A stretch of DNA of 5,159 nucleotides, taken from the NCBI GenBank assembly GCA_964510585.1, contig CAZECW010000141.1, forward strand, positions 1 to 5,159, read 5' to 3'. The notes under the pieces were generated by a model that searched no databases, was not told where the DNA came from, and was given only the letters and a program-made list of their open reading frames with translations. A program made the position numbers and the translations under genes. Shown in pieces: positions 1 to 5,159 of this stretch. Origin of the DNA: an uncultured archaeon. GTDB lineage: Archaea; Asgardarchaeota; Jordiarchaeia; Jordiarchaeales; Jordiarchaeaceae. Within the stretch, counting starts at the first letter, position 1; each line of letters opens with the position of its first letter.

Positions 1-135
1 TGCGTCTTGTTTAGCCTCTTAAGCCCAAGCCAAACCCTTCAGCTACCAACAACTATTTATATACCATACTTTCAAATAAACTTTCTGGCGATTCATCCCC
101 ACGACTAAAGTCGGGGGCTTTCTCGCCAAGGTTTT
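1..135 (-). mobile_element. IS200/IS605-family element, left end (copy A); the element runs out of the window to the left
   Basis: On the minus strand it reads TTTAC|AAAACCTTGGCGAG-AAAG-CCCCCGAC-TTTA-GTCG-T-GGGG-ATGAATCGCC. This is a target motif, a 4-nt guide and an imperfect subterminal hairpin (97-117), the same layout as the IS608 left end. No transposase ORF is visible in the window. Confidence 0.85.
56..63 (-). promoter_or_regulatory. Archaeal TATA-box-like element inside copy A, pointing into the element
   Basis: TATATAAA on the minus strand, preceded by GAAAGTATGG. It mirrors 5020-5027. Confidence 0.5.
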
Positions 136-218: not shown

Positions 219-839
219 TTAGTTTGTGCTTTTTTTGGTTGCAAGCTTTACTCGGGGAATTATGTGGTATATTTCGTCTTTTTGCTTCTGACTCTTTTCG
301 CTTGTTTGTTCCATTTCAGTCTTTTGCTCTGGCTCCTCCTTACTCAACTTGAATATTCCCATCTTTTGTTTTGGCTCCTCGTCTTGGCTTTGAGAGGGGC
401 TGGGAAAGGTGGGATTTGGAGGATGTGCGGGTTCGGAAGTAGAGGTAAAGCTTGGTTGGCGGGGGATTAATTCCTTTTTCGAAGCGGGGAGTGAGGGGGA
501 GGGGAAAAGGTCTTTTGAGGAAGTACTTGGCGAGGGTTCCAATGTGTCATAGAGGCTACGGCCGATGGCAGAGATTTGAGAGTCTTCTATTCGGTCTTTC
601 ACTTTGGCAGAGGGTTTTTGAAGGTTAATTCTTTCATTTTCGTCTTCGGGGAAAATTCTTCTGAAACCGTAAAGTTCCTGGATGATTATTTTCACTTGCT
701 GTTCCAAGACTTTGAAGCGACGGTTTAGGTCTGACACTTCCTCAAATAGGATTTTGGTCATGTTCTGAATGTTTTCCTGATTTTCCCAATAATTTCCCTT
801 CAAAGCTTTACCTTTCTTGGACAGAAACAATTTTCCCAC
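219..839 (-). CDS. Hypothetical protein, 206 aa: N-terminal predicted coiled coil plus a Pro/Ser/Glu/Lys-rich, probably disordered C-terminal half
   Basis: 621-nt ORF with a GTG start preceded by purine-rich AAAGGAAAG and a TAA stop. It has a heptad-like segment (VSDLNRRFKVLEQQVKIIIQEL) and an in-frame internal duplication (EEPKQK/EEPEQK). No family recognised. Confidence 0.7.
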   Translation of the reverse strand: MGKLFLSKKGKALKGNYWENQENIQNMTKILFEEVSDLNRRFKVLEQQVKIIIQELYGFRRIFPEDENERINLQKPSAKVKDRIEDSQISAIGRSLYDTLEPSPSTSSKDLFPSPSLPASKKELIPRQPSFTSTSEPAHPPNPTFPSPSQSQDEEPKQKMGIFKLSKEEPEQKTEMEQTSEKSQKQKDEIYHIIPRVKLATKKSTN

Positions 840-1346: not shown

Positions 1347-1556
1347 TTGCTAGAAAAAGCAATCTCCCTAATAAAAATGGCCGAGAGTCTTAAGTTTGCG
1401 TTGGAGAAGGGATGGTACGATAGGGCCCTACTACTAGCTAACGGAATCCAAAAAATTGCGGAGTTGCTCGAAACAGAAATTGGAAACACCCAGTTAATCA
1501 TACAATCAGTTAGAATGTCCCAAGAACTCCTAACCCTATACGAGACATCAACCTAA
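1347..1556 (+). CDS. Small alpha-helical hypothetical protein, 69 aa
   Basis: TTG start with a strong SD-like GGGGTGGTG and an upstream TATA box. The helical pattern is amphipathic and the composition protein-like. It is the only ORF in this region with translation signals. Confidence 0.65.
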   Translation: MLEKAISLIKMAESLKFALEKGWYDRALLLANGIQKIAELLETEIGNTQLIIQSVRMSQELLTLYETST

Positions 1557-1749: not shown

Positions 1750-2667
1750 ATGACCGTTAATAATTCTGCGCTTCTTAAAATTAAGAATCTTTTTCTAAAC
1801 TGTCGGATGAGGAACATTGCTGGTTGGACTAGCCTGGTGGTAATTGGCTGGGCTGCAACATTCAGTCTGGGAAAATTCCAAAGCATATTCCAAGTTGCCT
1901 TCAACGCCTTACTACATATGATTCCCATTGCTGTTTTCGCCTTTTTTCTAACCGGTTCCTTCTTCTCCATAAATAATGCGTTCGATGTGCAGGAGGACAT
2001 AAATGCCGGGAAGACCAGCAACCTTGTAGCAAGAGGGCTTATCACCAAAAAAGAGGCGATATTATTCAGTATTGTATTAGCCATGGCTTCTATAGCCTTC
2101 TTCTCCTATATTGGTGGATTCTTGGGATTTTTGTTTTCAGTCACCTGTGTTGTGCTGGGTTTCCTCTACTCTGTACCTCCGGTTAGATTTAAAAAGAGGC
2201 CGGTAGTTGACTTGATATCTCATGGTTTATTTTTGGGTTCGCTATTAATTTTGATTGGCGCCACAACCTATGGTGGAACACTGAATAGAACCGCCTACTT
2301 CTTTGCTGTGGCTTTCTTCATAGTTTCGTGCCTTTTTCAGATGCAAAACCTTCTGGGAGACTACTTTGTGGACAGAGACTTGGGCATCAAAACTACCGCA
2401 GTTAGTTTACGCTCGTGGGAAAGAGGGAGATACTTCTTCCTTGCATTTGCCATTATAGGCACCATTATAACCATCACTTTTGGATGGTACCTTGTAATTG
2501 ATTGGAGAATAATCTCCTTAATGGCGTTAATTAAGTCTATAAACATATTAGTATATCTGCCTTTGTTTTCAGTATACAAAATATATCTATTCCAGCTCAA
2601 GTTTCAACCAGCCATACTTATGGCATGGGGAGCAACTATTTTGTTAGTCACGTTAATTGTGACTTAA
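1750..2667 (+). CDS. UbiA-superfamily integral-membrane prenyltransferase, substrate unknown
   Basis: First Asp-rich motif NNAFDVQED (1972-1998), LYSVPPVRFKKRP (YSxxPxxxK), and second motif NLLGDYFVDRDLGIKT (from 2347). Many hydrophobic segments. SD GGTGA at 1741-1745 before the ATG. Confidence 0.9.
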   Translation: MTVNNSALLKIKNLFLNCRMRNIAGWTSLVVIGWAATFSLGKFQSIFQVAFNALLHMIPIAVFAFFLTGSFFSINNAFDVQEDINAGKTSNLVARGLITKKEAILFSIVLAMASIAFFSYIGGFLGFLFSVTCVVLGFLYSVPPVRFKKRPVVDLISHGLFLGSLLILIGATTYGGTLNRTAYFFAVAFFIVSCLFQMQNLLGDYFVDRDLGIKTTAVSLRSWERGRYFFLAFAIIGTIITITFGWYLVIDWRIISLMALIKSINILVYLPLFSVYKIYLFQLKFQPAILMAWGATILLVTLIVT

Positions 2668-2833: not shown

Positions 2834-3892
2834 TTACTTCTTAATTTTTCCTTGTATGTACTCGTTTAACATTTTTTCTGTTTCGTTTAGTGGGTAGTAC
2901 TTTGGTGGTTTTTTAAATCCGTATGCGCAGAGTGTGTCAATTGTTCCATACACTTTTCTGTCGAGCGCTAACTTCACTCCTCTTATCACATCAAGCAGTA
3001 TTGATGATGAGTTAGGTGCATCCACTGTTCTGAGGGTGATGTCTATTTTAACAGGTGTGTTATTAAAATATCTTCCGCTTATCCAGAAATAAGAGTCCCT
3101 TGTGTTCTTCATGAAGTCTACATAGTCTGTGGTTCCCGCCACTATGGGAACCGCATAGGGTACAGCCTCTTGAATGGCTTTCCTCTTAACTTCCCTTTTA
3201 ATGTCGCCACGAGCCTTCTCAAGCGTAACCAAAGATTCAACTCCCCCACCAATGTCTAACTGGTATGTTTGGTCTATTTTTACGCCTCTTCTGACCAGTA
3301 GGTCGAGTATAGTTTTGTGTAGAATAGTGGCGCCGATTTGATTCATAATATCGTCTCCAGCTAGGGGAAGTTTTGCTTCTTCAAACCTGGAAGCCCACTC
3401 TTTATCGCTTGCTATGGCTGTTGGTGTCGTGTTAATGAAGGCGCATCCGGCCTTAATTGCTTGCTCTGCGTACCATTTTGATGCTTGCACCGCACCTGTG
3501 GGGAGGAAGTTTACCACTATTTCTGTTTTGCTCTTTTTCAACTCTTCGCTCACATTTACACTCGGTCTCTTGTCCACCTTAATTTGGTCACGCAGGTACT
3601 CTGCGATACCATCCATCACTTCTCCCTTCTGAACAGTTACGCCCAGAGTATTTACATCACTCACTTTTTCGTAACGATTGGATGGCGCAAAAATGGCTTC
3701 AGACAGGTCCTTACCCACTTTCAGGGAGTCTATGTCAAATGCTGCGGTGAACTCTATGTCGCTCGGCTTGTATCCTCCGAAGTTATGAAATTTCAGTCCT
3801 ACAAAATCTCCATTCCTGTATGAGCTAACTCCCTGAACTAGCGAAGAACAACAGTCACCTACTCCAACAACTGCAACCTTGATTTTAGGCAT
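2834..3892 (-). CDS. ino1: myo-inositol-1-phosphate synthase (Ino1/MIPS) family protein, divergent active site
   Basis: It matches the actinobacterial/archaeal MIPS pattern along its length: KVAVVGVGDCCSSLVQG, AAFDID..KVGKDLSEAIF, FLPTG, GDDIMNQIGAT, TDYV, DAPNS, KKPP. The start is placed at ATG 3892 because the GTG at 3901 used by the ORF track lies inside the GGTGA SD motif. The gene symbol is family-level only. Confidence 0.88.
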   Translation of the reverse strand: MPKIKVAVVGVGDCCSSLVQGVSSYRNGDFVGLKFHNFGGYKPSDIEFTAAFDIDSLKVGKDLSEAIFAPSNRYEKVSDVNTLGVTVQKGEVMDGIAEYLRDQIKVDKRPSVNVSEELKKSKTEIVVNFLPTGAVQASKWYAEQAIKAGCAFINTTPTAIASDKEWASRFEEAKLPLAGDDIMNQIGATILHKTILDLLVRRGVKIDQTYQLDIGGGVESLVTLEKARGDIKREVKRKAIQEAVPYAVPIVAGTTDYVDFMKNTRDSYFWISGRYFNNTPVKIDITLRTVDAPNSSSILLDVIRGVKLALDRKVYGTIDTLCAYGFKKPPKYYPLNETEKMLNEYIQGKIKK

Positions 3893-3997
3893 TGAACTCA
3901 CCTTCCCATTTTTATTAACTCGTTCTATTATTTGATGTTTAAACCATTATTTTGCTCAAAAGTTTTTCCATTTCTCGAAACTTTTTTTCATAATTAG

Positions 3998-4786
3998 TTA
4001 TTTAATTTTTTTACTTAGAACAGTGTACAGGGGGGTAAATAGGTTGTAGATCCACTCCAAAACTCTACTTTTTCTTACTATTCTCATAATGCCAGAGTTT
4101 GGTAAATGCTTGTCCCACTTGGGTGAATTTATAATTGAGCGAAATTTAACCTTTGAGAGTAATTCTACAAGGTTCTCGTAAGAAACAAGTTTAACAGGGA
4201 AGCTTGTCCCCAATCCCGACATGCGGATAAAAACATCAGCAAACCTCTTAGGCAGCAGCGTAATACCCAAAAGGCCAGTGTGTGATTCTCTGGGATATCG
4301 CCTATTAGGAGTTGTGAGATATAGGTGTCCTTCAGTCTTAAGTACACGGTATATTTCTCTTATCAGTTTTTCTTGTTCATCCAGATGCTCTATTACGTCA
4401 TTGCAAATTACTAGGTCAAATGTTTCATCTCTAAAGGGAAGACTGGTTCCGCTACCCAATACTTCGCCCACCCCGCCACTAGGAGGAAAACTGTTTTCCG
4501 AATCATCAACATTAATTCTTGTGAGATTCATAAGCTTTTTATCGAGATCCAGTGCTACTACCCTATTCCTCCTAATAGCGAACGAAACGCAGATTCCTCC
4601 CGCACCACATCCCAAATCCAGAATTTTGAGTTTAGAAATCTGAGGCAGATATTCCCGGAGCTGCTTAACGTAGAGCTGAACCCTTTTCTCCGTATTCTTG
4701 TACCAGTCCCACCAGTTCTGATAGTTGGCGAAGCCTTCGAGAGGTTTAAGATACTCTCTCAGAGCCTTGTCAAAGTTTTTACCCAC
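3998..4786 (-). CDS. Class I SAM-dependent methyltransferase (Methyltransf_11-like)
   Basis: Motif I ILDLGCGAG, acidic LDLD after strand 2, LPFRDETFDLVICNDVIEHL, EIYRVLKTEG and TPN. GTG start. Confidence 0.9.
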   Translation of the reverse strand: MGKNFDKALREYLKPLEGFANYQNWWDWYKNTEKRVQLYVKQLREYLPQISKLKILDLGCGAGGICVSFAIRRNRVVALDLDKKLMNLTRINVDDSENSFPPSGGVGEVLGSGTSLPFRDETFDLVICNDVIEHLDEQEKLIREIYRVLKTEGHLYLTTPNRRYPRESHTGLLGITLLPKRFADVFIRMSGLGTSFPVKLVSYENLVELLSKVKFRSIINSPKWDKHLPNSGIMRIVRKSRVLEWIYNLFTPLYTVLSKKIK

Positions 4787-4826: not shown

Positions 4827-4942
4827 GTCAACGCTAATTGTTTACATTTTCTACTCTTAAATGTATTACTTAACCAGGAAGTGATCCGAAAAGGCAAAAC
4901 CTTCAAAAGGAAAAAGAAAAGGAGGAATATGATATTTTTGCC

Positions 4943-4947
4943 TTTAC
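4943..4947 (+). other. Insertion target motif TTTAC (core TTAC) abutting copy B
   Basis: These are the first 5 nt shared by both copies, 14 nt before the AAAG guide at 4962-4965. Confidence 0.7.
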
Positions 4948-5019
4948 AAAACCTTGGTGAGAAAGCCCCCGACTTTAGTCGTGGGGATGAATCGCCAGAA
5001 AGTTTATTTGAAAGTATAG

Positions 5020-5027
5020 TATATAAA
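5020..5027 (+). promoter_or_regulatory. Archaeal TATA-box-like element inside copy B
   Basis: TATATAAA preceded by GAAAGTATAG. The expected start near 5046-5051 coincides with the first hairpin. A second candidate, CAGAAAG-TTTATTTG, lies at 4996-5010. Confidence 0.5.
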
Positions 5028-5047
5028 TAGTTGTTGGTAGCTGAAGG

Positions 5048-5159
5048 GTTTGGCTTGGGCTTAAGAGGCTAAACAAGACGCAGCCCCCATGAGGGTGCCA
5101 ACATAGACGCCGTTCCCCTGAGGGAAGGGCGTGTTAACTGGGTGATGGCACACCCATTG
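5048..5159 (+). ncRNA. Putative structured RNA inside the IS (omegaRNA/reRNA-like candidate), truncated by the window edge
   Basis: Four consecutive hairpins found by eye: 5048-5074, 5080-5098, 5107-5132 and 5139-5156. GC is about 57% over 5041-5159 (68/119 by hand count), against AT-rich surroundings. All three plus frames have stops between 5031 and 5137. Confidence 0.4.

Follow-up and report, generated by a model that had tools for sequence, protein, structure and literature searches.

A gene-less IS200/IS605-type mini-element with a putative TnpB guide-RNA scaffold in a hot-spring Jordarchaeia genome

Introduction

A contig of 5159 nt (C141) from a hot-spring MAG of the Jordarchaeia, an Asgard archaeon (genome G000), closes with what resembles the left end of an IS, followed by a TATA-like box and a series of hairpins where a transposase gene would be expected. 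The whole contig, referred to here as the window, was analysed; its two ends break inside inverted copies of the same repeat. The locus raises the question of what such a segment represents: the truncated start of an autonomous IS, a structured leader ahead of a gene, or a gene-less element that carries a guide-RNA scaffold for a TnpB encoded elsewhere. The original prediction favoured the last of these and suggested that the TnpB in question might be a nuclease-dead regulator. Taken as a whole, we find it likely that the element is an internal-deletion derivative of an IS608-like IS200/IS605 IS that would use both TnpA and TnpB in trans, and the parts of this reading differ in strength, as set out below.

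Extent, copy number and coding content of the element

The copy at the right-hand side of the window (copy B, 4948..5159, plus strand) was delimited by blastn and by alignment with 29 complete and ~90 partial copies. The window holds only the first 212 nt of an element of ~275 nt, which is cut by the contig end; judging from the complete copies, the missing ~62 nt would comprise a fifth stem, the right-end hairpin and TCAA. A second copy (copy A), already pointed out in the original prediction, is real. Its first 135 nt occupy positions 1..135 on the minus strand, next to a TTAC at 139-136 (minus strand), and it reads leftward out of the window. It was recovered by blastn and through a 140-nt inverted repeat (I1), in which positions 1-140 are 99% complementary to 4943-5082. 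The left ends of the two copies both face inward, and both candidate promoters read outward.

A BLAST search of the genome with positions 4940-5159 returned 136 pieces, many of them at contig ends. When 19 internal copies were extended, similarity was seen to begin just past TTAC and to cease ~275 nt further on at ...GAGTGTCAA, with flanks that are unrelated between copies and not duplicated. A census of the genome gave 29 complete internal copies, together with partial ones at contig ends, 51 of them left parts and 39 of them right parts, and the copy number, for which a blastn count had been proposed, is about 70-80. The complete copies measure 271-280 nt and are mostly 95-98% identical (n=29); TTAC lies directly 5' of 28 of them, and all 29 terminate in GTGTCAA. 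Most contigs of the assembly end ~140 nt into a copy, so that the repeat, with its burst of ~75 copies, is the main cause of fragmentation and accounts for the many contigs that end in it.

The element is devoid of genes. Complete copies are overlapped by no ORF of at least 80 aa, and no ORF of at least 40 aa starts in the window segment, except for frames running off the contig end. A tRNA scan of the sequence found no tRNA. The Rfam search that had been suggested as a check matched no family, HgcC (RF00062) included, at E up to 1; the queries were the window itself, one full copy, the 3' ends of two tnpB genes and two PATEs from other genomes. From 5073 onward one frame stays open as far as the contig end, as would be expected if the segment were a structured 5' leader or ribozyme before an ORF, or the start of an autonomous IS with tnpA or tnpB past the window; a gene beginning at GTG 5142 or ATG 5145 had been named as the observation that would overturn the gene-less interpretation. 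Such a gene is absent from every copy. All 29 complete copies end in TCAA ~62 nt after the point at which the contig stops and then pass into unrelated DNA, which, with the lack of ORFs and of Rfam matches just described, refutes the leader or autonomous IS at the level of the family and leaves it with virtually no chance at this locus. The architecture originally proposed, namely a left end, a promoter-like box, a structured segment and a right end without tnpA or tnpB, is thus the one observed in the complete copies of ~275 nt, and the right-end hairpin, sought within 100-200 nt, was found ~62 nt past the window.

The genes located between the two repeats encode a UbiA-family prenyltransferase (1750-2667, plus strand), a myo-inositol-1-phosphate synthase homologue (2834-3901, minus strand) and a class I SAM methyltransferase (3998-4786, minus strand). 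They look like a lipid or inositol-related neighbourhood, unrelated to the element. Two further ORFs have no Pfam match, one of 206 aa (219-839, minus strand) and one of 69 aa (1347-1556, plus strand); the former, in a G/T-rich stretch that looks repetitive, is possibly not a real gene.

Left end, motifs and candidate promoter

The left-end hairpin, the TATA box and the four stems reported in the original prediction all lie where it had placed them. The element follows TTAC (4944..4947, plus strand), which is the predicted target site of TnpA and the expected TAM of TnpB. AAAG (4962..4965, plus strand; read from the sequence) abuts the 5' side of the left-end hairpin and occupies what we take to be the site of the left 'DNA guide' of IS608, which pairs with TTAC. 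The hairpin itself (4966..4986, plus strand) is imperfect, reads CCCCCGAC-TTTA-GTCG(T)GGGG with an extra-helical T, and is a putative recognition structure for TnpA on single-stranded DNA. Every full copy has at its right end the hairpin CTCC-CGAC-TTTA-GTCG-C-GGAG, preceded by GAAT at the position equivalent to that of AAAG on the left. Terminal inverted repeats are absent, and the left and right subterminal imperfect hairpins differ from each other. In IS608, TTAC and AAAG characterise the left end, TCAA and GAAT the right end, and the hairpin contains an extra T; the motifs and the hairpin of the present element read as being of the IS608 type.

An A/T-rich, TATA-like box, TATATAAATA, is located at 5020..5029 (plus strand). 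Pairwise alignment with the autonomous IS showed that its homologue there is the box preceding tnpA, and the left-end homology spans this box and stops about where the tnpA ATG would be. The candidate promoter would therefore be the former tnpA promoter region, which now lies directly next to the scaffold. With the spacing usual in archaea, transcription is predicted to start at about 5048-5052. The box varies among copies (TATATAAATA, TATGTAAATA, TACATAAATA and TATACTAATA), a point that we counted against the main reading.

Autonomous relatives in the same genome

Y1 transposase genes (PF01797, 113-129 bits) were detected on three contigs of the genome (C7, C169 and C162). These tnpA genes are intact and encode 129-145 aa, and the left ends directly upstream of them are ~93% identical to nt 1-60 of the element, the left-end hairpin included. 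The match extends further, as the first ~95 nt of the element correspond to the left end and tnpA promoter region of the autonomous IS copies.

At the opposite end, there is a clear match between the final ~100 nt of the element and a tnpB 3' end with its right end, on the tnpB strand and ending at the transposon boundary. The alignment to tnpB 3' ends that had been proposed bore out this relationship, with element nt ~180-275 homologous and ~80% identical to the tnpB 3' ends and right ends at C8, C45, C54 and C152. TnpB C-terminal domains (PF07282) are encoded at C8, C81 and elsewhere in the genome. In the closest tnpB, that of the C8 type, residues ~200-285 are missing and the middle part is absent from the contigs, and one tnpB copy (C7) carries a frameshift; both points were counted against the main reading. 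C81 carries a more distant complete IS with a matching right end, whose TnpB has 424 aa and the Pfam domains OrfB_IS605 and Cas12f1-like TNB. At this locus (C81:5072-6840, minus strand; L014), a degenerate tnpA region lies in frame with tnpB, giving an open frame of 571 aa, and the tnpB frame crosses the whole scaffold and right end, its stop TGA overlapping the final TCAA.

Sharing its ends with autonomous Y1 (HUH) IS copies of the same genome would place the element among the non-autonomous derivatives of IS608-like IS200/IS605 elements, that is, among PATEs. That it is a PATE carrying a tnpB-derived scaffold is, in our assessment, very probable.

Fold and covariation of the structured segment

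Four stems lie within the window. Stem 1 (5048-5056/5066-5074, plus strand) has 9 bp, including two G-U pairs, and stem 2 (GCA-g-CCC / GGG-TGC; 5080-5086/5093-5098, plus strand) follows it; both come from the MFE fold and are family-specific. Among the stems of the conserved, omegaRNA-type scaffold, stem 3 (5107-5117/5122-5132, plus strand) comes first, and after it come the core GTTAAC and stem 4 (5133..5159, plus strand, with the TGGGTG / CACCCA stem at 5139-5144/5151-5156), a region that in the autonomous elements encodes the TnpB C-terminus (..VNWAMAHPL). Stem 5, TTGCTTC/GAAGCAA around GGCTC/GAGCC, lies beyond the window in full copies. The MFE fold of a complete copy (-82.7 kcal/mol) contains stems 1-4, the fifth stem and the right-end hairpin, and it also pairs GACGC (5077-5081) with GUGUC at the right end; 0 of 200 shuffles folded as well (z = -4.74).

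Stems 1 and 2 on their own (window 5044-5102) are at chance level, as 102 of 200 shuffles were as good (z = 0.11). Two copies vary in stem 1 with RNA-type pairing kept, from G-U to A-U and from A-U to G-U, and these wobble-compatible variants are the sole support for the two stems. Stem 2 is invariant among copies and is, for that reason, not amenable to covariation testing. Neither stem has a counterpart in the other families, and stem 1 is absent from the ~200-nt family of the sister genome described below. As for their source, a global alignment pointed to the final codons of tnpB as collinear homologues, and the best local match (13/14 nt, equalled by 5/1000 shuffles) falls on codons of tnpB that lie about 335 nt away from the right end; the two matches conflict in tnpB position.

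A covariance model (R1) was built on stems 3-5 and the right-end hairpin, with stem 3 as helix 1 and stem 4 as helix 2, and 51 sequences, 45 of them distinct, were realigned to it. RNAalifold applied to a plain MAFFT alignment had recovered stem 4 and the right-end hairpin only, because lineage-specific hairpins were misaligned, and the model-based realignment was used instead. In this alignment, which is fitted to the structure of the model and thus biased toward it, 90.6% of the cells of the 45 distinct sequences are paired, compared with 48-54% when partners are slid. Both-side changes occur in 24 of the 32 pairs, against 10-17 in the slid controls, and the covariation score of 0.312 (at most 0.104 in the controls) was reached by 0/500 shuffles. 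All eight pairs of stem 3 show both-side changes (8/8), as do 4/6 pairs of stem 4, in which 94% of the cells are paired. For stem 3, the raw sequences give the same picture as the fitted alignment, with five unrelated arm sequences across five lineages; its arms elsewhere read GTGCC/GGCAC, GCTACCT/AGGTAGC, CTCGCCTCC/GGAGGCGAG and CCC..CCCC/GGGG..GGG. A search of the genome with R1 retrieved 87 scaffolds, about 74 of them in the 275-nt family, and gave a cut-off match to copy B at C141:5087-5159.

In PATEs and tnpB 3' ends that come from several archaeal phyla, stems 3-5 and the right-end hairpin thus show strong covariation. Homology to the tnpB 3' end and covariation together justify regarding the distal structured part as a putative omegaRNA scaffold. 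The four stems had originally been taken as one guide-RNA scaffold; covariation supports this for stems 3 and 4, whereas stems 1 and 2 are peculiar to the family and no more stable than expected by chance. The location of the covarying part also bears on whether the RNA of the element might act without TnpB, as a TnpA decoy or a small regulatory RNA. Such a role was speculated for a PATE RNA of Halobacterium, in which overexpressed PATE-derived RNA affects growth and competition for TnpA has been proposed (PMC4615843). The part that covaries here, however, is the one that corresponds to the tnpB 3' end, beyond the end hairpin bound by TnpA, and we regard a TnpB-independent role as extremely improbable.

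Relatives in other genomes

The stem-4 core, scanned for as an exact pattern, is present in MAGs from hot springs that belong to Jordarchaeia, Methanomethylicota and Hadarchaeota. Some of the matches are true tnpB 3' ends, with a core that is identical in three phyla, and others belong to gene-less elements. R1 matches 32 of the 151 sampled genomes of the phylum, including 5/5 congeners, and the runs that contain the element are almost all hot-spring metagenomes. In one metatranscriptome (X14), two low-depth contigs (~3.5x) from related subfamilies span the scaffold and right end and continue beyond them; at this depth they weigh neither for nor against transcription. No empty-site joint was found in the contigs of X14 and of three hot-spring DNA runs.

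The bursts of elements appear to be species-specific. Among the congeners searched (G001-G005), none has the 275-nt family, which was found in G000 only; G004 has many copies of a ~200-nt family of its own, and the closed congener G005 gave weak scaffold matches only.

Several gene-less families were distinguished. In that of ~200 nt from the sister genome G004 (QZM_A3), the deletion junction lies right before stem 3. Another, of ~330 nt, occurs in Methanomethylicota. G000 itself harbours a second family without genes, measuring ~320 nt. It shares the stem-4 core but has a left end of its own, and it also contains several hairpins, a long stem 5 and an A/T box; its copies (C107:6922-7233, C58:28240-28557, C21:~60-398 and C32:~13043-13380) resemble the Methanomethylicota elements. 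The succession of left end, A/T box, scaffold and right end is common to the ~200-nt, ~320-nt and ~330-nt families.

These families are relevant to the possibility that the element is a passive relic, moved by TnpA via its two ends, with a promoter and a scaffold that are leftovers of the deletion and unused by TnpB. Several observations are compatible with a relic. Among 25 close copies, polymorphic columns make up 19/112 of the paired and 17/65 of the unpaired positions (p = 0.18), so that the polymorphisms show no significant avoidance of stems; the TATA box is variable, stems 1 and 2 have chance stability, and the copies are young enough (95-98% identical) for conservation within the family to say little. 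Against this, the whole scaffold, and not just the ~50-nt end hairpins, has been kept in at least three independently derived gene-less families, and in the ~200-nt family the junction falls exactly at the 5' edge of the covarying scaffold. Expressed PATE RNAs (PMC4615843) and omegaRNA-bearing PATEs (PMC10055086) have, moreover, been published. On balance, we consider a passive relic unlikely.

Guides and catalytic residues of TnpB

In position, in strand and in where it ends, the scaffold corresponds to a TnpB omegaRNA, and the guide of each copy would therefore be its own right flank. Of 77 right flanks, 76 match their own flank only, and a single one has a TTAC+12-nt match elsewhere. This indicates that the guides would be self-directed, as in the published homing/retention model, and would not form a regulatory repertoire.

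The guide with a match elsewhere is that of a copy on C12, whose counterpart on C154 (TTAC+16-nt) lies within a duplicated segment of 98% identity with unrelated left flanks. When C12:8680-9153 is compared with C154:2119-2321, the right flank recurs directly behind TTAC with 98% identity over at least 198 nt. This could reflect strain variation, a chimeric join made across the repeat, a potential trans target of TnpB, or a duplication at whose edge the element lies. Two other candidate matches were rejected: that from C62 to C75, which follows another repeat and is shifted by 2 nt relative to TTAC, and a third one of 17 nt, which is chance-like. Around 18734-18900 (minus strand), C75 contains a dispersed repeat of about 135 nt that ends in ...CTTACAA and has at least 9 copies, 83-93% identical, the others being on C66, C90, C193, C207, C213, C25, C47 and C129; the same 49 nt follow this repeat at C75 and the mini-element on C62.

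The associated TnpBs have a Gly at the position of the canonical RuvC-II glutamate (IVVG[D/N/R]L), which would fit the published clades with a rearranged active site of this type. RuvC-I and RuvC-III have their Asp residues, and the translated TnpB frames of C81, C8 and L048 share a conserved Glu two positions ahead of the TS motif, so that there is no evidence for a dead nuclease. The original prediction had allowed for a nuclease-dead regulatory TnpB, and a dispersed guide repertoire serving a TldR-like protein that regulates host genes would be in keeping with the Gly in RuvC-II and with numerous copies that each have a different flank. This proposal finds no support, given the conserved Glu and Asp residues, the self-directed guides, with their one outside match confined to a duplicated segment, and the position of the tnpB genes, which lie in mobile IS copies beside tnpA and not at fixed host loci. 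We judge such a repertoire very improbable.

A model for mobilisation and retention in trans

In the model that we favour, the Y1 TnpA of the autonomous copies would move the element in trans as single-stranded DNA, with insertion 3' of TTAC. The presence of near-identical copies (95-98%) at different TTAC sites lends indirect support to this predicted mobilisation. The retained tnpA promoter would drive an RNA through the scaffold and right end into the flank, and each copy would in this way give rise to an omegaRNA with a guide of ~16-20 nt taken from its own right flank. TnpB from the autonomous elements would bind this omegaRNA in trans and trim its 5' part. After excision of the element, TnpB would cut the empty site, consisting of TTAC and the flank, and recombination would restore the element, which would behave as a selfish unit using TnpA and TnpB made elsewhere. 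For the RNA of the element being made and used by TnpB, we put the chances at slightly better than even.

A further conjecture, which we advance tentatively, is that selection has made the combination of promoter and scaffold into a minimal 'self-retaining' unit, which would draw on both TnpA and TnpB in trans, and that it is not a chance product of deletion. If true, this would account for the excess of ~15-20 to 1 over the autonomous parents, as well as for the same layout having arisen independently in three or more families of Asgard and Thermoproteota archaea. Supplied with about 75 constitutive guides, TnpB would also become a genome-wide surveyor of its own insertion sites.

Comparison with known systems

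The element is an example of a kind that has already been described, and no new type of system emerges from it. The name PATE was given to elements of Haloquadratum walsbyi (PMC3119063), and according to Meers et al. (2023, PMC10055086) PATEs 'often encode omegaRNAs', for which TnpB has to be provided in trans; the novelty implied in the original prediction is thus forestalled by this work and by that on Halobacterium salinarum (PMC4615843). A further report describes the processing by TnpB of its own transcript into omegaRNA (PMC10278001). What the present family offers is a well-resolved archaeal case of a gene-less IS200/IS605 derivative in which the putative TnpB guide-RNA scaffold stands behind the old transposase promoter. 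It supplies a covariance model and diverged relatives with which to define the omegaRNA in a clade of archaeal TnpB proteins whose RuvC-II is rearranged, and it lends itself to testing, in a natural setting, whether guide RNAs provided in trans help non-autonomous elements to persist.

IS608 of Helicobacter pylori resembles the element in having TTAC as its target and as the site of cleavage on the left, TCAA as that on the right, AAAG and GAAT 5' of the hairpins and an extra-helical T. It is, however, an autonomous bacterial IS with tnpA and tnpB, whereas the element described here is archaeal and has neither gene.

TldR, an exapted nuclease-dead TnpB (PMC10705468), has in common with the proposed system a TnpB-family protein and an RNA made of scaffold and guide. 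Its guides are encoded beside a fixed, immobile gene and target host promoters, while those considered here would be the flanks of mobile copies. Lost RuvC residues, an immobile gene and a guide against a host promoter, the features by which TldR is recognised, were not those found in this genome.

Closer likenesses are found among the haloarchaeal PATEs, which are also archaeal fusions of a left and a right end that arose by deletion of the transposase genes. In Halobacterium salinarum, the PATE RNA VNG_R0052 and RNAs that overlap tnpB in sense are expressed (Gomes-Filho et al., PMC4615843), so that in this archaeon the tnpB 3' end and the right end do give rise to RNA. No classical BRE-TATA promoter was found upstream of these tnpB-overlapping sotRNAs (PMC4615843). 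The present elements form a separate sequence family that does not match the Rfam family HgcC (RF00062), and they have a longer scaffold (~180 nt) with a TATA box upstream of it.

The PATE-like elements of Geobacillus stearothermophilus (PMC10055086) are gene-less as well, have ends in common with autonomous elements and a target motif and TAM immediately 5' of the left end, and encode an omegaRNA for use in trans by a TnpB encoded elsewhere, which is predicted here. Compared with them, the present family, known from sequence alone, reaches ~75 copies, against a few among 47 elements, and it combines an Asgard host with a candidate archaeal TATA-type box inherited from tnpA.
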